Translations under genes and position numbers: made by a program | The notes under the pieces: model-generated | Databases searched by the model: none | The model's input: only the letters and a program-made list of their open reading frames with translations | Told to the model about the DNA's origin: nothing | In this document: positions 6,174 to 14,178 of the stretch, in pieces | Layout of the letters: the number at the start of each line of letters is the position of its first letter | Position numbering within the stretch: the stretch's first letter is position 1 | From: Actinomycetes bacterium | GTDB lineage: Bacteria; Actinomycetota; Acidimicrobiia; Acidimicrobiales; JAKAOS01 | Assembly: GCA_021795215.1 (NCBI GenBank) | Contig: JAJYPS010000001.1 | Span: forward strand, 728 to 64,727 | Length of the DNA: 64,000 nucleotides | Direction: 5' to 3'

Positions 6174-6578
6174 TCAGCGGACGTTGCTCCGGTCGGCGTC
6201 CGGCGGCCGAGCTCCCACCGGCTCGGCGGGACCGGCCGGAGCTCCCCCGAGCTCCCGGAACGCCGCCATCGCCCTCGGGCCGTACACTGTGCCCGGGCCG
6301 CCGTTCAACAAGACCGCCACCCCCAGTGCCTCGGCCACTTCTGCTTCCGTCGCCCCCTGTCGGGCAGCGCCACGGGCATGCGCGCCTATGCATCCGTCGC
6401 ACTGGCGTGCGACCGACACTGCCAGTGCGATCAACTCCTTCGTCTTGGTGTCCAGGGCACCGGGAGCCATGGCCTCTTTGTGCAGAGTCGCATAGGCCGA
6501 CCACACGGACGGAATGCGGTCCCTCAAATAGCGGCCCTGCGGCCGGAGCTCGTCGGCTGTCTCTTTGGCGGTGGGCAT
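6174..6578 (-). CDS. carboxymuconolactone decarboxylase / AhpD-like family protein
   Basis: LDTKTKELIALAVSVARQCDGCIGAHARGA contains the CxxC of the AhpD-like fold. It is a complete 134-aa ORF. Confidence 0.85.
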   Translation of the reverse strand: MPTAKETADELRPQGRYLRDRIPSVWSAYATLHKEAMAPGALDTKTKELIALAVSVARQCDGCIGAHARGAARQGATEAEVAEALGVAVLLNGGPGTVYGPRAMAAFRELGGAPAGPAEPVGARPPDADRSNVR

Positions 6579-6588
6579 GGTTCCCTCC

Positions 6589-7146
6589 TCAGCTCCTTTC
6601 CCTACCGGCCAGTCGGTTGCGGTAGAGGGCGGCGGTAGCCGCGTCGAACGCGCAGAGAACGACCCACTCGGCAGCCCCGTCGTGTGACGCTACCGAGTCG
6701 ACCGCAATCTCAGCCGCCCGCACGGCAGGGTACCCGTAGATGCCAGTCGAGATGGCAGGAAAAGCGACGGAGCGACACCCCAGCTCCTCTGCCACAGCAA
6801 GGCTGTTGCGGTAGCACTCTCGCAGCAGCTCCGGTTCACCTTCCCCACCACCTCTCCAGACCGGTCCGACGGTATGGATCACCCACCTGATCCGAGGTTC
6901 CAGGGCGAACGCCGGCGTGGCTACGGCTTCCCCTGCGGCAAGCGGCGCAAATGCCGATGCCGCCTCGGCAAGCGCAGGGCCTGCCGCACGATGGATCGCT
7001 CCGTCCACGCCTCCTCCACCACGCAGCGCCGGGTTCGCCGCATTCACCACGGCGTCCACCTCCACTGCGACGATGTCGCCTTGCACCACTTCGATCCGCG
7101 GGTTCACCGCGAAAGCTATCCCCCACCATAAGGAGACTCTCACCAT
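6589..7146 (-). CDS. macro-domain protein (O-acetyl-ADP-ribose deacetylase-like)
   Basis: GDIVAVEVDAVVNAANPALRGGGGVDGAIHRAAG and AFPAISTGIYGYP are canonical macro-domain motifs. The start was chosen at MVRVSL (7146). The track ORF runs to 7239. Confidence 0.85.
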   Translation of the reverse strand: MVRVSLWWGIAFAVNPRIEVVQGDIVAVEVDAVVNAANPALRGGGGVDGAIHRAAGPALAEAASAFAPLAAGEAVATPAFALEPRIRWVIHTVGPVWRGGGEGEPELLRECYRNSLAVAEELGCRSVAFPAISTGIYGYPAVRAAEIAVDSVASHDGAAEWVVLCAFDAATAALYRNRLAGRERS

Positions 7147-7304
7147 TGGTTCATTCACTTCACAGCAGCGCTGCCGACAGTAGGAGTGGTGGTTCTGCTC
7201 AGCGGTGGAGCGGTTGGCGCGGTCAAGGGAGCCCGGCAAGTGGAGAGCGGTACGGTCACAGGACTTCGGGCAGCGGGGCTGCAGCTACCCGCCAGGAGGA
7301 TGAT

Positions 7305-7835
7305 ATGAGGCGGTCCCAGAAGGTGATGGCGACGGTAGCGGCCGCAAGTTCCGTAGCGATCGCGGGCGGTGCGCTCGTGGTCTGGCCGCCGGCCCCTGCA
7401 GTGCCGGTGTCGGTCAACGCAAGACCTCACACCGTTGGGAGGACGTCCCTCTCTCCGGGCACGCTCGCGTCGCTGAAAGCGCTCGGCATCCAGGAGCAGC
7501 AGCTCGCCCAAGCGATCGCCGCTGCCCACAAGAACCTCTCCACCTCCATTACCGCCGAGGCGGCGAAGCTGGCGGCAGCGGACAGGACGCTGGCCGCGCA
7601 GCGGAGCTCGCTCGCCCAGTCGGCCGCCCAGATCTCCGCTCGTCAGCAGGCTCTCAACGGGCAGGCCGCCCAGTTGGCCTCCCAGGCCGCAGCGATCCGA
7701 GCCGCAGGCGCTCAGTTGGCAGCCCAGCGAAGCGCTGCCGCGGCGGCTCCCACGCCTGCGCCGGTGTTCCACGCCGTGACCGGTGCAAGCGGAGCTCATC
7801 ACGACGACGTAGGGGGCGGAGGCAGTGACCACTGA
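7305..7835 (+). CDS. hypothetical single-pass membrane/secreted protein, Ala/Gln-rich helical, with a C-terminal VTGASG tail
   Basis: The ATG at 7305 is preceded by aggagga. The N-terminus is MRRSQKV plus the hydrophobic segment ATVAAASSVAIAGGALVVW. A long A/Q/S-rich region follows, and the protein ends FHAVTGASGAHHDDVGGGGSDH*. Confidence 0.6.
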   Translation: MRRSQKVMATVAAASSVAIAGGALVVWPPAPAVPVSVNARPHTVGRTSLSPGTLASLKALGIQEQQLAQAIAAAHKNLSTSITAEAAKLAAADRTLAAQRSSLAQSAAQISARQQALNGQAAQLASQAAAIRAAGAQLAAQRSAAAAAPTPAPVFHAVTGASGAHHDDVGGGGSDH

Positions 7836-8316
7836 CGAACCGCTCCACGACACGTTCCGGCGCTGGAGTGACTGGCAGTCTCCCCGCGGCGGCCCCCGCC
7901 GAGCTCGGTCGGACGCTCCCGCCGCCCGCGATTCGCGGATGGAGCAAGTCCGCGGCTGGGTCGCACCGGTGGCCATCGGCGGCATAGTGGCGTCCAGCGC
8001 CGTGAGCGCTCTCTTCTGGGTCGCTCCCAGGGTGCCGATCCCCTCGTCTTCTGCTCCGACGCCGTCGTCGACTTCCGATGCCGCTGCCGTCGCCGCGGCG
8101 GCGGCCGACCTCTCCCGACTGAACAGAGCCGTAGCTGCGGAGAATGCTCAGATCGCGCAGCTTGCTTCCTTGCCGGTCCCTCAGCCCAGCGCAGCCGGCT
8201 CGTCCACCGTGTCCTTGCCGGCGCTCAGCGCCGTCCCCTCCATCGGCTCGATGAGCATTCCGTCGGGGCCTCCGCCCGCAGTACAGGCGACGACCGGAGC
8301 GTCCGGTGTGCCCTGA
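7825..8316 (+). CDS. hypothetical single-pass membrane protein, Ala-rich, with a C-terminal TTGASG tail
   Basis: The GTG at 7825 overlaps the upstream stop (an alternative ATG lies at 7939). An Arg-rich N-terminus is followed by the hydrophobic segment WVAPVAIGGIVASSAVSALFWV. The protein ends PPPAVQATTGASGVP*. Confidence 0.55.
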   Translation: MTTDEPLHDTFRRWSDWQSPRGGPRRARSDAPAARDSRMEQVRGWVAPVAIGGIVASSAVSALFWVAPRVPIPSSSAPTPSSTSDAAAVAAAAADLSRLNRAVAAENAQIAQLASLPVPQPSAAGSSTVSLPALSAVPSIGSMSIPSGPPPAVQATTGASGVP

Positions 8317-8371
8317 GCGGTCCGCCGAGACACTGGCTCGTCCGCTCGTGCTCTCTCTCCGAGACCGAGCA

Positions 8372-9322
8372 ATGGCCAGCGACGTGTCGGTGACGGCACA
8401 CTGGGACACCTCTACGGAGCCGCCGGCCGGCGGCACTCGCAAGGCGATGCTGATGCGAGCGATGGAGGTGTTCCATGCCGTCGAAGCGGCCTGCACCCGG
8501 TTCGATCCGCACAGCCCGCTGATGCGCGCCAACTCCGAAGGGGGAGCCTGGCACGAGGTCCCCCGCGAGTGCTTCCTGGCTCTGTGCGAGGCGGAGAGAG
8601 CACACCGGGTCACCGGTGGCCGGTTCGATCCAAGAGTGCTCGGTGATCTGGTGCGCCTCGGCTACGACTCGAACCTGCGCTTCACCGGGCAGTCGGCCAG
8701 GAGCCTGGTCGAACTGCCGCCACGGGAGCGCCGGCTGCCCGTACCGCCGCGACCACCGTGGCGGCTCGACACGATAGCGAGCCGGCACCGAGTCCGCATC
8801 GGGCCGGAACCGGTGGACCTCGGTGGCATCGGCAAGGGGCTGGCGGTGCGATGGGCGGCGGCCGAGCTCGCCTCGTCGACCGACGGCTTCCTGGTCGACG
8901 CGGGCGGTGACATCCACTGTGGGGGGGACGCCCCCGGAGGAGGAAAATGGAAAGTGGCCGTAGAGGACCCCATCGGCGATCCGGACCCCGTCGCCGTCCT
9001 GGCGCTTTCGGACCTGGCATGTGCGACCTCCTCGACGAGGCTGCGCCGATGGAGAGAGGGCGGCAGGACGGTGCACCACCTCCTCGATCCCCGCACCGGT
9101 CAACCGGCCGGACAGGGGCTCGCCTCCGTCACGGTCGTCGGCCCCGACCCTGCCATGGCGGAGGTGTGGGCCAAGGCGATGTTCGTGGAGGGTCTCGACC
9201 GGGCCGGTCGTCTCGCAGCCAGTGAGGACCTGGCCGCACTATGGGTCGACGTGGCAGGGAACGCGTTCCTGAGCTCGGCCATGGCGCCGTACATCTGCTG
9301 GAGCAGGGTTGCGCTCGGTTAG
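8372..9322 (+). CDS. apbE: FAD:protein FMN transferase (ApbE family)
   Basis: VDLGGIGKGLAV, FLVDAGGDI, WKVAVEDP, ATSSTRLRRW and HHLLDPRTGQPA are typical ApbE motifs. Start at ATG 8372 or GTG 8306. Neither gives a signal peptide. Confidence 0.85.
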   Translation: MASDVSVTAHWDTSTEPPAGGTRKAMLMRAMEVFHAVEAACTRFDPHSPLMRANSEGGAWHEVPRECFLALCEAERAHRVTGGRFDPRVLGDLVRLGYDSNLRFTGQSARSLVELPPRERRLPVPPRPPWRLDTIASRHRVRIGPEPVDLGGIGKGLAVRWAAAELASSTDGFLVDAGGDIHCGGDAPGGGKWKVAVEDPIGDPDPVAVLALSDLACATSSTRLRRWREGGRTVHHLLDPRTGQPAGQGLASVTVVGPDPAMAEVWAKAMFVEGLDRAGRLAASEDLAALWVDVAGNAFLSSAMAPYICWSRVALG

Positions 9323-10007
9323 CCAGCGGATCGAAGCACTTCCGGTCGACGACGGCCCCCGTCCGGGCGGGTTCGTCCCGCCAGGACTTCGGTTCGGCTC
9401 GTTCGTGGCACTTATGGGCATCGCCGGCGGGTGGGTCGCGGCACTGGCTTTTCTACCTGGACTGACGAGCCGCATGCTGCCGTGGATCGTCGGCAGAGCG
9501 CTCGGGATCGCTGCCTACACGGACTTGGTGCTGTTGGTAGCGGTAGGGACCTGGTTCCGTCACCCTTGGCGCCTACGCCACACTGTCCTGCACCCCCAGA
9601 CGCAGCTGCGACTTCACGCCGGCCTTTCCGCCGGTGCGATCGCCTTGGTCGCCGGCCACGTCGCGGCGCTCGTGGCAGACTCGTACGCGAAGGTCGGCCT
9701 GCTCGGCGCGTTCGTCCCCGGCGCTTCCGGTTACCGGCCCCTCGCCGTGGCGGTGGGTGTCGTGGCCCTTTACGCCGGGTTGGCCGTAGGGCTCGGCGCT
9801 GCACTCTCCGGTAGGACCGGGTGGGGCTGGCTCGGTGTTCATCGCCTCGGAGCGGCGGTCCTGGCGTTCGCCTGGCTTCACGGGGTGCTGGCCGGGACGG
9901 ACACGATCGCTCTGCGCTGGTTCTACGTGCTGACCGGGGCACTGCTGACAGCGCTGGTCGCCTCCCGGCATGCCGCCGTGCCGCCCCAGGAGAAGCTCCG
10001 CCAGTGA
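9309..10007 (+). CDS. ferric-reductase-like (MsrQ/YedZ-like) transmembrane protein, putative di-haem b
   Basis: About 6 hydrophobic helices carry paired His residues (RLHAGLSAGAIALVAGHVAAL; GVHRLGAAVLAFAWLHGVLAG). It overlaps the apbE 3' end and is coupled to the next gene by GTGA. Confidence 0.55.
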   Translation: MRSVSQRIEALPVDDGPRPGGFVPPGLRFGSFVALMGIAGGWVAALAFLPGLTSRMLPWIVGRALGIAAYTDLVLLVAVGTWFRHPWRLRHTVLHPQTQLRLHAGLSAGAIALVAGHVAALVADSYAKVGLLGAFVPGASGYRPLAVAVGVVALYAGLAVGLGAALSGRTGWGWLGVHRLGAAVLAFAWLHGVLAGTDTIALRWFYVLTGALLTALVASRHAAVPPQEKLRQ

Positions 10008-11377
10008 GCGGGCCACCTCGGCTGATCGCACGCGAGGCCAGAGCTCGACCGGCTGCGGACGGCGCATCCCGTCGGAGACCGCTGCTCGAGCCCTGCGACA
10101 CGGCGCGAAGCGGGGGGCAGCTGCCCCGGCTGCTGGCTGGTCCCCCCGCCCACGGCGGGGCCGAGACGTTCGAACAGCATCTCGCCCGCCTGGGGCACCT
10201 GCCTCGGAGATGCCCCGAGGACATCGTGGAGATGGTCCATCAGGCGGGGCTGCGGGGACGAGGAGGGTCCGGGTTCCCGGTGGGACGTAAGATGGCCGCC
10301 GTTGCCGATCGAGGCGGCGATCCACTGGTCGTGGTCAACGCGGCCGAGAGCGAACCTGCCAGCATGAAGGACAGGCTGCTCCTCCGGCTGAGGCCCCAGC
10401 TCCTTCTCGACGGCGCAGCCGTCGCTGCGGCTGCCACCGGTGCCGGCCAGGCCGTCATCTATCTCCACTCCGGCGACGACGTTCTCGCATCGGCGCTCGA
10501 GACGGCGTTGCTGGAGAGGACCTCGACCCCCTTCGACGACCCGACCTTTCGCGTCGCCTACGGCCCGCCGAAGTTCGTCGCCGGCGAGTCCAGCGCCATT
10601 GTCTCGTTCCTCGAAGGCGGCCTCGCCAAGCCCCGCCATGCGCATCGCAGCTCCACCTCCGGCGTGGACGGCAGACCGACTCTCATCCAGAACGCCGAGA
10701 CCGCCGCGCACCTGGCTCTCATAGGGAGAGGGGGGCCGGACTGGTTCCGGCAGGCCGGCACCAGCCGGTGGCCCGGCTCCGTCCTCGTCACGCTGACCGG
10801 CGCAGTCGCCTCACCGGGTCAGGTCCTCGAGCTGTCCGGCCCGCGACCGACCTCCGACCTGCTCACAGATGCGGGCAGGCTGGATCGCCCGCCTCAGGCG
10901 GTCCTCCTGGGAGGCTACGGCGGTGCATGGGTGGAGGGCGAACGGGCCTGGGACGTTCCCATCTATCCCGACATGCTCGCCGACCGGCATCTCCCTTTTG
11001 GTTGTGGCCTCCTGGCCGTCCTGCCACACGGGCACTGTGGCATCGCCGAGACGGCACGCCTGCTGACCTACTTGGCCGACGAGAGCGCGCAGCAGTGCGG
11101 AGCGTGCATGTTCGGGCTTCCCAGGCTCGCCGAGACGATGCAGCGGCTCGCTGCCGGACAGGCAAGCCGAGCGGAGCTCCGGCGGTTCACCCGCCGGAGC
11201 GATTCCATAGTTGGACGTGGCGCCTGCGGTCACCCCGACGGAGCGGTCGCCATGGCGGCGAGCGCACTGGACACCTTCGCCGGAGACGTGGCGCTGCACC
11301 TGACCGGCAGGCCCTGTCCTCCCCACGCCCGCCGCGGGCTGTTCCCGATCCCCAGCCACTGCCCTACCTGGCGATGA
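10004..11377 (+). CDS. NuoF-like (complex I 51-kDa family) NAD(P)H/FMN/4Fe-4S protein
   Basis: GLRGRGGSGFPVGRKM (FMN/NADH site), AAESEPASMKDR and C-terminal ESAQQCGACMFG...GRGACGHPDG (N3-type cluster cysteines). The GTG start overlaps the upstream stop (GTGA). The track ORF 9821 start was judged too long. Confidence 0.8.
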   Translation: MSGPPRLIAREARARPAADGASRRRPLLEPCDTARSGGQLPRLLAGPPAHGGAETFEQHLARLGHLPRRCPEDIVEMVHQAGLRGRGGSGFPVGRKMAAVADRGGDPLVVVNAAESEPASMKDRLLLRLRPQLLLDGAAVAAAATGAGQAVIYLHSGDDVLASALETALLERTSTPFDDPTFRVAYGPPKFVAGESSAIVSFLEGGLAKPRHAHRSSTSGVDGRPTLIQNAETAAHLALIGRGGPDWFRQAGTSRWPGSVLVTLTGAVASPGQVLELSGPRPTSDLLTDAGRLDRPPQAVLLGGYGGAWVEGERAWDVPIYPDMLADRHLPFGCGLLAVLPHGHCGIAETARLLTYLADESAQQCGACMFGLPRLAETMQRLAAGQASRAELRRFTRRSDSIVGRGACGHPDGAVAMAASALDTFAGDVALHLTGRPCPPHARRGLFPIPSHCPTWR

Positions 11378-11646
11378 CGGACCACCTCCGCAACCCGTCG
11401 CAGGGCACCGTCGTGCTGGACCCCTCCAAGTGCCGCGGGCATGGCATCTGCTCACTCGCCAGCAGGGGTCTGATCGGGCTCGACGAGTGGGGATTCGCCG
11501 AGCTGAACCGACTTCCGGTCGAAGGGAGGTCGATGCGCCTCGCACGGGCAGCTGTGCTCGCGTGTCCTGCCAAGGCATTGGCTCTGGAACTTCTCCCCGA
11601 GCCTCTCCTGATCCCCGGCGCCCAGCCTGAGCCACCCCTCTTTTGA
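11374..11646 (+). CDS. small ferredoxin (single 4Fe-4S-type)
   Basis: ATGA overlap with the NuoF-like gene. VVLDPSKCRGHGICSLASRGLIGLDEWGFAE...ACPAKAL resembles actinobacterial single-cluster ferredoxins. Confidence 0.7.
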   Translation: MTDHLRNPSQGTVVLDPSKCRGHGICSLASRGLIGLDEWGFAELNRLPVEGRSMRLARAAVLACPAKALALELLPEPLLIPGAQPEPPLF

Positions 11647-11694: not shown

Positions 11695-13314
11695 ATGAAC
11701 TCTAGCTTTCGGTACATCGCGGTCCGGCTGGCTCGTCTCCGGGGTGCCGGTGCCCGCGATCTGCCGCAGCAGGCCAAGCAGCCGTTCCGGAGGATGGCAG
11801 CCGCACTGGCGGTACTGGCAGCCGGCCTGGCGGGAGCAGTCGCTCCGGCGCAGTCGGCGTCGGCTGCCCAACCTCAGGCCACCGGCTACTGGGTGGTGAG
11901 CAGTCGGGGCAGCGTGCTCCCCGTCGGCGGCATCCCCAACCTGTCGCCGAGCTTCTCCGTCGCACCGAGCACTCCGGCAGTGGCCATCGCGTCCACGCCG
12001 GACGGAGCTGGCTACTGGATCGTCACCGCGGCGGGAAACGTGTTCAATTTCGGCGATGCCGGATGGTTCGGTTCGCCCGCTGCGAGAGGTGGCCTCAACG
12101 GCACGGTGACCGGACTGACGCCGACGCCCGACGGACACGGCTACTGGATCGTCACCGCGGCGGGAAACGTGTTCAATTTCGGCGACGCCGGATGGTGGGG
12201 CTCCCCGGCAGCAGAGTCGGTGCATCTTCCGCCGGTCGTAGGAATCGCATCGGCCGCCGGGGGCACCGGGTACTACGTGCTGACCCAAGCCGGCAACGTG
12301 ATCACCTTCGGCAACGCCCCCTGGTATGGATCGCCTGCCTCGCTGAGTCCCGGTCGTATCGTCGCCATCTCGGCCGACCCCGCAACGGGCGGCTACTGGG
12401 TGGCCTCGTCCACGGGTGGCATCTTCTCTTACCACAGCCCTTTCCACGGCTCTCTGGGCGCCTCCACCATTCCGGCGCCGATCACGGGCATGCAGGCGAT
12501 CCAGGATGGCAGTGGCTACCGGCTCGTCGGTAGCGACGGCAGCGTGTACGACTTCGGGTCTGCCACCTATTTCGGGTCGGCCGTCGGCAAGAGCCTCGGC
12601 GGCCCGATAGTCGGAATAGCCCCCTCCACCGAACTGGGAGCGACCATCCGCTACCCGGCAGGCGCCAACGGCTTCGACGTGTCTTGGCCACAGTGCGGCG
12701 GCCCCCTTCCGGGAGGCCCTCACACCATCGCCATCGTCGGCGTCAACAACGGCCTCACCTACACGCTCAACAACTGCCTCGGATCCGAAGCGGCCTGGGC
12801 CGGAACAGGCCTGAACCTGTACATCAACCTGAACCAGCCCGCGTGGGCAAACGTGGTCGTCGGTGAGCATGGACCCGCCGGCAACTGCAGCCTCTCGGAT
12901 GCGCAGTGCCTGTCCTACAACTTCGGCTACAACGCGGCTACGTGGTCGGTGCAGCAGGCCGCCAACCAGCACATACACGCTCCGATGTGGTGGCTGGACG
13001 TCGAGCTCGTATCTTCGGAGCCCAGTTACTGGTCGTCGAACCAAGCGGCCAACGCTCAGGTCATCCAAGGCGCGATCGACGCTCTGCACGCCCAAGGCCT
13101 GCTTGCCGGCATCTACTCCACGTACAGCCAGTGGACTGCGATCAGCGGCAACTTCCACCCCAACGTACCGGTCTGGTATCCGACCGGGTACAACCTGACC
13201 GGTCCCGGCAGCACCAACCCCAGCTGGTGGTGCGCCAACGCGAACAGCTTCGCAGGACAGGTGTGGCTGATCCAGGGAGCCTCTGGCGCCTACGACGGCA
13301 ACTACTCCTGCTGA
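11695..13314 (+). CDS. secreted protein: six ~43-aa GYW-x-V-(x7)-FG repeats plus a C-terminal GH25/DUF1906-like glycoside-hydrolase-like domain
   Basis: Signal-like N-terminus (FRRMAAALAVLAAGLAGAVAPAQSASA). Repeats are of the form GYWIVTAAGNVFNFGDAGWFGSPA. The C-terminal domain starts GANGFDVSWPQCGG. Confidence 0.8.
   Translation: MNSSFRYIAVRLARLRGAGARDLPQQAKQPFRRMAAALAVLAAGLAGAVAPAQSASAAQPQATGYWVVSSRGSVLPVGGIPNLSPSFSVAPSTPAVAIASTPDGAGYWIVTAAGNVFNFGDAGWFGSPAARGGLNGTVTGLTPTPDGHGYWIVTAAGNVFNFGDAGWWGSPAAESVHLPPVVGIASAAGGTGYYVLTQAGNVITFGNAPWYGSPASLSPGRIVAISADPATGGYWVASSTGGIFSYHSPFHGSLGASTIPAPITGMQAIQDGSGYRLVGSDGSVYDFGSATYFGSAVGKSLGGPIVGIAPSTELGATIRYPAGANGFDVSWPQCGGPLPGGPHTIAIVGVNNGLTYTLNNCLGSEAAWAGTGLNLYINLNQPAWANVVVGEHGPAGNCSLSDAQCLSYNFGYNAATWSVQQAANQHIHAPMWWLDVELVSSEPSYWSSNQAANAQVIQGAIDALHAQGLLAGIYSTYSQWTAISGNFHPNVPVWYPTGYNLTGPGSTNPSWWCANANSFAGQVWLIQGASGAYDGNYSC
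12001..12197 (+). repeat. near-identical 129-bp-offset internal duplication inside the repeat-protein gene
   Basis: 12010-12056 is identical to 12139-12185 (47 nt). After one mismatch the identity continues for about 12 nt. Confidence 0.9.
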
Positions 13315-13488: not shown

Positions 13489-14178
13489 CTACATGGCCTC
13501 CTTGATGCCCTTGCGGATGAGCCAGACGTTGACCGGCCAGGCGGTGAAGAAGCCGATGATCATTCCGACCTGCATCAGGAACCAGAACGCAGCATGGTCC
13601 GGGTGGATGTGGTTCGGGGACAGTACGAACTGCATGAACGCCATCCAGCCGAACAGCCCCACCTCGAACGCGGTGAGTGACAGCACGTCAGCCTTGGCCG
13701 CCTCGATCAGGCCCTCACGCACCCCCAGGCCGCGCATGGGTGCGATCGCGAAATACTGGAAGACGATCCCGAAGCTGACCGCAAGGACGTAGTCGCCGAT
13801 CAACTCCGGTATCAGCGAAAGACCGAGGATGGTAGCGCCGAGGCCGAACACGGCCCACTCCGCGCACAGGTCTCCCAGGGTGCAACCAGCGCCGCAGTGG
13901 CTCACCCCGGTGGCGATCGTCGACCAGCCCGCCCGCTCCGGCGGCTCCTCGTAGCCGTGTTCGGCCCGCCAGGCAGGACTCTTCGGCCACCCGAAGCGCC
14001 GGTACCCCCACACGGCAGCAGGCCCGAAATAGAGAGCGGTGATCGGCCAGACCGCTTCCATGACTCCCATCTGCTGGCGGTGACCCCGCAACCACAGGTC
14101 GGCGGCGATCCACCCTGCGCACAGGAGTGCCGAGGCGATCGCCGCCCAACTGAGGATCGTCAACCAGGCGGGAGGCAT
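13489..14178 (-). CDS. DUF4396-like integral membrane protein
   Basis: GVSHCGAGCTLGDL and multiple hydrophobic helices. It is a complete 229-aa ORF. Confidence 0.7.
   Translation of the reverse strand: MPPAWLTILSWAAIASALLCAGWIAADLWLRGHRQQMGVMEAVWPITALYFGPAAVWGYRRFGWPKSPAWRAEHGYEEPPERAGWSTIATGVSHCGAGCTLGDLCAEWAVFGLGATILGLSLIPELIGDYVLAVSFGIVFQYFAIAPMRGLGVREGLIEAAKADVLSLTAFEVGLFGWMAFMQFVLSPNHIHPDHAAFWFLMQVGMIIGFFTAWPVNVWLIRKGIKEAM

Follow-up and report, generated by a model that had tools for sequence, protein, structure and literature searches.

We analyzed a 64,000-nt stretch of an Acidimicrobiales metagenome-assembled genome (MAG) (Actinomycetes bacterium, GCA_021795215.1, contig JAJYPS010000001.1, positions 728 to 64,727; hereafter "the window") and found that six consecutive open reading frames (ORFs) on its plus strand, at 7305-11646, form a unit in which every junction overlaps. 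These genes encode two small proteins with conserved C-terminal tails (A and B), an ApbE-family protein, an MsrQ-like membrane protein, a NuoF-like flavo-iron-sulfur protein, and a ferredoxin. We estimate a probability of ~60% that the operon is a self-contained system for exporting electrons and belongs to the MsrQ-like, flavinylation-associated kind, carrying electrons from NAD(P)H to flavin mononucleotide (FMN) tethered on A and B. This estimate draws on the family assignments of the proteins, their conserved ligand residues, the linkage of the genes across genomes, and the conservation of the tail motif. The core arrangement has already been published as a genomic prediction. However, the C-terminal flavinylation-type tails, an ApbE without an export signal, the three-Cys ferredoxin, and the altered cluster site of the NuoF-like protein look new.

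Gene order and the component proteins

An original prediction, made from the window's sequence, had described apbE and the three genes after it as translationally coupled, and the overlaps were found where it had placed them. The apbE and membrane protein genes share 14 nt (TTG at 9309 vs. the apbE end at 9322), the TGA stop of the membrane protein gene overlaps the GTG start of the NuoF-like gene in GTGA (10004-10007), and the NuoF-like stop and the ferredoxin start overlap in ATGA (11374-11377). Still, the unit extends upstream to six genes instead of four, because A and B are coupled by the same kind of overlap (11 nt). The NCBI annotation of the same MAG (locus tags M0Z87_113xx) uses identical starts for these genes, and the membrane protein (232 aa) and the NuoF-like protein (457 aa) match NCBI proteins at 100% coverage. 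Its label for the NuoF-like product at 10004-11377, "proton-conducting membrane transporter," misfits a soluble FMN and iron-sulfur (Fe-S) protein. The GC content of the region is ~67-70%. No internal promoter-like or terminator-like sites were found in the six-gene unit by a simple scan for E. coli-type consensus sequences, which is weak evidence.

Using patterns that single out the NuoF-like subtype on a set with one genome for each species, we counted at least 595 loci, and we determined gene linkage with profile searches in the best 80 of these (related loci are numbered L001, L003, and so on below). The NuoF-like gene had the ferredoxin gene immediately after it in 79 of 80 loci and an MsrQ-like gene immediately before it in at least 68 of 78. 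An apbE gene was found upstream of the NuoF-like gene in 55 of 72 loci, and 52 of 72 had the full set of apbE, MsrQ-like, NuoF-like, and ferredoxin genes. The 80 loci came from Acidimicrobiia, Solirubrobacterales, Actinomycetes (including a Streptomyces and Phytohabitans), Dormibacterota, and Chloroflexota, and the same gene order was seen in two further contexts. Because this order recurs in most of the 80 genomes and in several phyla, it is not a chance arrangement. The tight linkage of the NuoF-like gene to apbE and MsrQ-like genes, on which the original prediction had depended, was therefore borne out by the neighborhood counts. None of the three findings that would have undone that prediction was made. 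The prediction had also placed the NuoF-like gene outside a nuo operon, and in the window and most of the 80 loci, its neighbors were indeed the MsrQ-like and ferredoxin genes rather than nuoE or other nuo genes.

The only other recurrent neighbor was a pair encoding an OmpR-type response regulator and a histidine kinase, present in ~42 of the 80 loci (e.g., L009:2821-4910 and L013:2930-4360) and missing from the window. The L013 kinase was closest to heavy-metal sensor kinases but scored below the family cut-off. We considered this two-component system as a functional clue and set it aside, as its similarities were generic (OmpR-type and heavy-metal-sensor-like) and fell below cut-offs.

The membrane protein is a putative di-haem b cytochrome, based on its conserved residues and its predicted structure. 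The original prediction would have lost its footing if the haem-ligand histidines had been missing on alignment, but H103, H117, H178, and H191 were invariant in both alignments (A2, with 25 sequences, and A3, with 43 sequences). Their spacing, H-x13-H and H-x12-H, is that of ferric-reductase-domain (FRD) cytochromes, and the pairs lie on two transmembrane helices. PF01794 was matched by 22 of the 43 aligned relatives (E ≤ 0.01), and more distant orthologues at the same gene position in L013 and L010 scored 35.7 and 33.2 bits, above the cut-off of 28. An AlphaFold model of the window's protein (pLDDT 84.6) contained six long helices, and the three top-ranking PDB folds for this model in Foldseek were STEAP4 (6hcy), the NOX5 transmembrane domain (5o0t), and human NOX5 (8u87). 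These matches had probabilities of 0.97-1.00 and a TM-score of ~0.5, but E-values were only 0.1-0.4. A family profile also matched PDB 8qt6/8qq7, which we take to be the bacterial SpNOX, weakly but with both His pairs aligned. We use the label MsrQ-like because of the PF01794 matches among relatives, the invariant histidines, the predicted fold, and the 8qt6/8qq7 alignment.

Some MsrQ-like proteins differ in architecture. Those at L013:5874-6986 and L010:5937-6977 (Solirubrobacterales and Dormibacterota) lack the first helix and gain a C-terminal helix and a predicted extracytoplasmic domain of ~170 aa without a Pfam match. This extra domain could be a docking site for a flavin tail. It was rejected as an FMN-binding domain, given the missing Pfam match and the lack of a conserved motif, and a PGAS loop in the window's membrane protein was likewise rejected as a flavinylation site, as the loop is not conserved.

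Profile searches confirmed the families that had been predicted for the NuoF-like protein, the ferredoxin, and ApbE. For the NuoF-like protein, PF01512 (Complex1_51K, E 9.6e-31) and PF10589 (NADH_4Fe-4S, E 1.1e-15) were matched, full-length alignment with solved NuoF chains reached E 3e-40, and the structure model had a pLDDT of 89.5. By contrast, the protein fell well short of the NuoF equivalog cut-offs (TIGR01959, 183 vs. 559 bits; NF010120, 137 vs. 389; NF008436, 113 vs. 749). The original prediction had it keeping both the GLRGRGGSGFP site for FMN and NADH and the C-terminal Cys cluster. The former is present, along with an ESEPAS-KD segment, but the latter is only partial: the first canonical Cys of cluster N3 is Ala throughout the subfamily (ESAQQCGAC vs. 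ESCGKCTPC in Mycobacterium smegmatis NuoF). C334, C345, C365, C368, and C408 are invariant in the subfamily, and H410, H432, and C438 nearly so. The protein is the putative NAD(P)H-oxidizing input.

The ferredoxin matched PF13459 (Fer4_15) with 31.9 bits against a cut-off of 22.4. It has three Cys in all, in the ligand pattern C20-x2-H-x2-C26 ... C64-P (CRGHGIC...CP). Most of its relatives share this pattern, and C-x2-H-x2-C...CP with exactly three Cys was found in 50 related ferredoxins. We take this pattern to be a mark of [3Fe-4S] actinobacterial ferredoxins, and a [3Fe-4S] cluster is probable here as well.

The window's ApbE matched PF02424 with 165.4 bits (cut-off 25.6, E 2.4e-48), and solved ApbE structures matched it at E 1.7e-19 to 1e-12. 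It contains DLGGIGKG, corresponding to the FAD-binding G-x-x-K-G segment (FAD, flavin adenine dinucleotide), and HHLLDP, corresponding to H-x-x-D-P with the catalytic His; the catalytic roles of these segments are assigned in part from published work (PMC12052999). The PF02424 domain starts at residue 25. A conserved Met of the ORF is at 8372, and the ORF has no start codon upstream of 8306. In several related loci, there was no physical room for a signal peptide on ApbE.

ApbE varied among the related loci in several ways. ApbEs paired with S-G-G-S tails retain a D...S-T form of the segment that, in the solved structures, presumably holds the Mg ligands (D...T), and ApbE subtype roughly tracks tail subtype, a pattern confounded by phylogeny. 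In the divergent loci L021, L048, and L042, ApbE has HHxxVP in place of HHxxDP, and small ORFs upstream end in ...SHGGG, ...SKSGGG, or ...SHPSGG, without a terminal Ser. In L039, L040, and L057, ApbE is in frame with a five-helix MsrQ-like protein with no stop between, and the L040 frame continues into the NuoF-like protein. All three are long-read assemblies, whereas in L047, a relative assembled from Illumina data, the three genes are separate and each has its own frame. One wrong base in a homopolymer at an ATGA junction would be enough to produce the L039 fusion, and these fusions are probably indel errors. We therefore did not rely on them as a ruler for topology. We also rejected the idea that a programmed frameshift or read-through fuses the small protein to ApbE and so gives ApbE a membrane anchor, because the relative frames vary (the window and L001, +1; L013 and L009, -1).

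Tail proteins, the proposed route, and its rivals

Judging from their sequences, A and B are the most likely candidates for the ApbE substrates and the outer electron carriers. Protein A, a coiled-coil paralogue, has an N-terminal signal-anchor (MRRSQKV followed by a hydrophobic helix), an Ala/Gln-rich predicted coiled coil, and the tail ...FHAVTGASGAHHDDVGGGGSDH, ending in HAVTGASGAHHDDVGGGGSDH. It belongs to no Pfam or NCBIfam family. In protein B, an Arg-rich N-terminus on the cytoplasmic side leads into a single transmembrane helix, then a low-complexity linker, and finally the tail ...AVQATTGASGVP directly before the stop codon. The seven-residue context is H-A-V-T-G-A-S in A and Q-A-T-T-G-A-S in B, and both contain the [S/T]-G-A-[S/T] core of the ApbE motif. 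A-type paralogues with TTGAS and an acidic, Gly-rich tail were present in L006 and L003. Metal binding by the His/Asp/Gly-rich end of protein A is a speculation that we note in passing.

The tail motif was found well beyond the window. The ORF directly before apbE ended in [ST]-G-[AGS]-[ST] in 41 of 58 loci, and with a looser five-residue pattern, 45 loci including the window contained the motif, with Ser as the last residue in 34 of them. Tails in the window's clade read H-A-T-T-G-A-S plus 2-4 residues, and most others end in [VT]-[ST]-G-G-S. In a control, only 12 of the 918 predicted proteins of the loci ended in the motif, all 12 being tail proteins, and the motif's density was 4.5e-4 per residue. 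The tail proteins share a plan of an Arg-rich N-terminus, one hydrophobic helix, a low-complexity linker of 50-160 residues, and the motif. Yet a database-wide sequence search with protein B returned only 3 homologues; because the linkers are hypervariable, the family is visible through gene position and tail motif alone. The original prediction had suggested the two upstream tail proteins as the flavinylated acceptors, and the conservation of a [ST]G[AG]S end across otherwise hypervariable proteins lends this suggestion support.

The 15 residues before the helix contain 3-7 Lys or Arg (4-7 in nearly all), compared with 0-4 after it. Under the positive-inside rule, this bias predicts an N-in/C-out orientation, which would place the tail outside the cell. 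Many anchors also carry [ST]R.RRW before the helix, weakly suggesting, at low confidence, a twin-arginine translocation (Tat) route. We did not adopt Tat export for the small proteins, as RR likely occurs by chance in Arg-rich flanks and is lacking in L009 (Streptomyces) and in the window's protein B. In a Dormibacteraeota locus without apbE (L011:4175-5908), a ...VAVSGGS tail ends a 577-aa multipass membrane protein.

In the route that we propose, the cytoplasmic NuoF-like protein would oxidize NAD(P)H at FMN, and its Fe-S centre would reduce the three-Cys ferredoxin. The ferredoxin would then donate electrons to the inner haem b (H103/H178) of the six-helix MsrQ-like protein, from which they would cross the membrane to the outer haem (H117/H191) and on to FMN bound covalently at the Ser that ends T-G-A-S in the A and B tails. 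Each of these proteins would be anchored by its one N-terminal helix and would hold its flavin on a flexible linker (B) or a coiled-coil stalk (A). Candidate final acceptors include Fe(III) or Cu(II), O2, and quinone-like or humic compounds. The FMN would be attached by the operon's own ApbE, most likely in the cytoplasm before the C-terminal tail is translocated, because ApbE is without an export signal, FAD is cytoplasmic, and cytosolic ApbEs are known. Taken further, the small proteins may represent a new class of ApbE substrate, namely natural flavin tags that lack a flavin-binding domain, with FMN esterified to the last or near-last Ser of a membrane-anchored tether (disordered or coiled-coil). 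They would be loaded in the cytoplasm by the signal-less ApbE and exported to serve as leashed extracellular shuttles, fed from NAD(P)H by the chain of NuoF-like protein, [3Fe-4S] ferredoxin, and di-haem cytochrome. We hold this extension only tentatively and consider it more doubtful than the export route itself.

Several observations weigh against the proposed exporter or its individual steps. The window's membrane protein had no Pfam match even at E ≤ 10 and did not reach the PF01794 gathering score, so the profile check that had been suggested for it was passed by its relatives and not by the protein itself. In the NuoF-like protein, the four-Cys pattern of N3 (C-x2-C-x2-C ... C) is incomplete. 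The canonical A-D-A-x-x-T of ApbE is replaced by A-E-x-x-x-K in the window and in L001, L003, L006, L026, L052, and L061. No signal peptide, lipobox, or anchor was seen on ApbE in the window or in ~55 related loci, although no dedicated predictor was used; an export signal or lipoprotein anchor is typical of the family but not universal. ApbE is thus predicted to be on one side of the membrane and its proposed substrate on the other, which leaves the flavinylated outside acceptor of the original prediction with a topology problem. The ApbE fusions described above, if real, would place ApbE outside. The tails lack the leading Asp of the ApbE motif, the majority form is S-G-G-S (mostly VSGGS), which departs from the canonical G-A-[ST], and some tails (L021 and L048) end in GGG without a terminal Ser. 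Finally, 17 of 72 loci had no nearby apbE, and no terminal reductase or acceptor gene was conserved beside the module in the 80 loci.

Some of these points fit an alternative in which the conduit is real but the tail proteins are anchors, assembly factors, or regulators and not ApbE substrates. ApbE would then have another cytoplasmic target or would supply FMN to the NuoF-like protein by hydrolyzing FAD. We regard this alternative as unlikely, even though it survives better than any other. It would account for an ApbE that is predicted to be cytoplasmic in every locus, and cytosolic ApbEs with cytosolic targets are known (PMC12052999). It would also accommodate S-G-G-S tails that are off the canonical motif, tails without a terminal Ser, and tail proteins retained in L022 and L028 without apbE. 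In L028, the tail protein gene is directly before the MsrQ-like gene. However, this locus shares a MAG (MFD05580.bin.2.6) with a second copy of the module, L058, which has apbE, and a single ApbE could serve both copies. Another target within the module is also hard to find: neither the NuoF-like protein nor the ferredoxin showed a conserved [ST]G[AG][ST], and the PGAS loop of the membrane protein varies. Moreover, the tail is the sole conserved part of a hypervariable protein, and its gene abuts apbE in most loci.

A different outcome, with a lower probability still, is that the MsrQ-like cytochrome is in redox exchange with the menaquinone pool, along the lines suggested for E. coli MsrQ, making the module an NAD(P)H:quinone oxidoreductase or a quinol-fed export route. 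The lack of a conserved acceptor gene beside the module would be consistent with this. Yet the cytochrome is nearly always accompanied by a dedicated NuoF-like/ferredoxin pair (79/80, with MsrQ-like at ≥68/78), its two-haem His set spans the membrane, and quinone reduction would leave the extracytoplasmic tails and ApbE superfluous. An MsrP-type (molybdopterin) partner was also missing, with none in the operon and none conserved nearby in the 80 loci.

Inward flow, from an extracellular donor through the tethered flavin to the reduction of NAD(P)+ or ferredoxin, is highly improbable: flow direction in such systems could be reversed in principle (PMC8238504), and NuoF-type modules are reversible in other enzymes, but general redox potentials imply that NAD+ reduction via b haems would be uphill without an energy-coupling subunit, of which none is present, and all characterized FRD-family proteins that we know of move electrons outward.

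Relation to described systems and significance

The electron exporter that we propose belongs to a kind already described in part. The original prediction did not recognize a stand-alone NuoF-plus-ferredoxin input as a known arrangement. This has to be corrected, because Méheust et al. 2021 (eLife, PMC8238504) described a NuoF-like protein (PF10589, 31 clusters) within MsrQ-like flavinylation clusters, a type common in Actinobacteria, and inferred NAD(P)H as the cytosolic donor for MsrQ-like plus NuoF-like clusters. That subset shares with our loci an apbE gene, a two-haem PF01794-type protein, the NuoF-like PF10589 input, and a mainly actinobacterial distribution. By contrast, the usual substrate there is a protein with an FMN-binding domain, and none is present in the window's operon. 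The main text of that study mentions neither the ferredoxin nor proteins with C-terminal tails, and in the literature that we searched, we found no experimental work on the NuoF-like subtype and no mention of its ferredoxin or tail proteins. Conserved tails of this type on small single-pass proteins appear to be undescribed.

The same study defined its clusters by a PF01794 gene clustered with ApbE, FMN-bind, DUF2271, or DUF3570, provided those partners carried one or more predicted signal peptides or lipidation sites (PMC8238504). The window falls outside this definition, with no PF01794 match and no signal on ApbE, although it is still the same kind of system. The difference between 31 clusters and hundreds of loci probably arises because these criteria miss loci like the window.

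Several better-studied systems resemble parts of the operon. In E. coli Fre-MsrQ(-MsrP), a "two-component NOX-like" system (Juillan-Binard et al. 2017, as cited in PMC8238504), a soluble cytoplasmic flavoprotein that oxidizes NAD(P)H likewise feeds a separate MsrQ-type b cytochrome, through which electrons cross the membrane. As far as that system is portrayed there, the donor is an FNR-type flavin reductase, whereas here it is a NuoF homologue plus a ferredoxin, and our loci have no linked MsrP while adding ApbE and the tail proteins. NOX and STEAP proteins share the transmembrane fold, the H-x13-H and H-x12-H ligation, and the NAD(P)H-driven outward transfer that we propose here. However, their dehydrogenase is a fused FNR-like or F420-reductase-like domain instead of two separate Fe-S proteins, and their outer haem passes electrons straight to O2 or metals without a covalent flavin partner. 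Complex I NuoF (Nqo1, the 51-kDa subunit) has both Pfam domains, the FMN loop, and the overall fold in common with the NuoF-like protein, which differs in having no NuoE partner, a replaced first N3 Cys, and extra invariant Cys and His.

Terminal flavinylation also has precedents. ApbE recognizes D-x-x-[S/T]-G-A-[S/T], the best position for a 7-residue tag is the terminus of a protein, and changing the Asp to Ala has a minor effect (PMC12052999). C-terminal unstructured extensions of FMN_red proteins are flavinylated as well (PMC11334425). The engineered Flavin-tag and the FMN_red sites (PMC12052999; PMC11334425) resemble our tails in their terminal [S/T]-G-A-[S/T] and unstructured context. 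By contrast, the candidate motif here would be natural, mostly ends in G-G-S, and sits on a membrane-tethered, largely disordered carrier without a flavin-binding domain. The Listeria FmnB/PplA system, also from a monoderm, uses flavinylated surface proteins as the last carriers of an NADH export route, as we propose here. Its route runs through Ndh2 and quinone rather than a NuoF-like protein, ferredoxin, and haem; FmnB is a secreted lipoprotein provided with FAD by an ECF exporter (PMC9973259); and PplA has folded FMN-binding domains, unlike A and B.

The export of reducing power to the surface of monoderm soil bacteria is poorly understood beyond Listeria-type systems, and the module described here is compact, self-contained, and found in at least 595 loci across hard-to-culture soil lineages. 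If the tails are flavinylated, the range of ApbE substrates would grow beyond folded domains to take in bare terminal peptides, and the engineered Flavin-tag would have a natural precedent. A flavin-tag system would then be widespread in soil Actinomycetota, Dormibacterota, and Chloroflexota, and would explain some of the "orphan apbE" genomes pointed out in 2021 (PMC8238504). It would also raise the question of how a tail that bears a cofactor gets across the membrane. A flavin that is tethered and exposed to solvent could plausibly give rise to metal reduction or reactive oxygen outside the cell. Should the tails turn out not to be flavinylated, the operon would still be a well-supported new member of the system predicted in 2021.

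Feature coordinates and neighboring genes

Table 1. Positions of the operon genes and of their main sequence features in the window
Feature	Position	Strand	Details
Small protein A	7305-7835	+	176 aa; ORF and sequence; AGGAGG 8 nt 5' of ATG
T-G-A-S of protein A	7779-7790	+	residues 159-162; candidate FMN attachment site
Small protein B	7825-8316	+	163 aa; 11-nt overlap with A, 11-nt overlap with apbE
T-G-A-S of protein B	8293-8304	+	residues 157-160; three residues from C-terminus
apbE	8306-9322	+	≤338 aa; stop TAG 9320-9322; PF02424 E 2.4e-48
ApbE A-E-V-W-A-K	9114-9131	+	residues 270-275; aligned to A-D-A-L-S-T (1vrm) and A-D-A-W-D-T (4xgw)
MsrQ-like/ferric-reductase-domain membrane protein gene	9309-10007	+	232 aa; start TTG 9309
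Invariant His codon span	9615-9881	+	H103 9615-9617, H117 9657-9659, H178 9840-9842, H191 9879-9881
NuoF-like flavo-iron-sulfur protein gene	10004-11377	+	457 aa; PF01512 and PF10589
GLRGRGGSGFP, FMN/NADH-site glycine-rich loop	10247-10279	+	residues 82-92; G85, R86, G88 invariant
Variant cluster-binding segment	11096-11227	+	holds C365, C368, C408; alignment to 8e9g_F
Ferredoxin gene	11374-11646	+	90 aa; PF13459 E 2.3e-7

The operon's upstream neighbors, on the minus strand, encode a Macro-domain protein (6589-7239) and a CMD-family protein (6174-6578). A plus-strand gene for a 539-aa protein (11695-13314) begins 48 nt past the ferredoxin gene and encodes a Tat-like N-terminus, FRRMAAALAVLAAGLAG. 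After this N-terminus come about six GYW(I/V)V..G.V..FGDA.W(F/Y)GS repeats and then a C-terminal GFDVSWPQCGG... domain. It had no Pfam or NCBIfam match, and its gene is not kept beside the module in the other loci. Two genes downstream of the operon, at 13489-14178 on the minus strand, is a gene for a DUF4396 membrane protein (E 1.4e-42).

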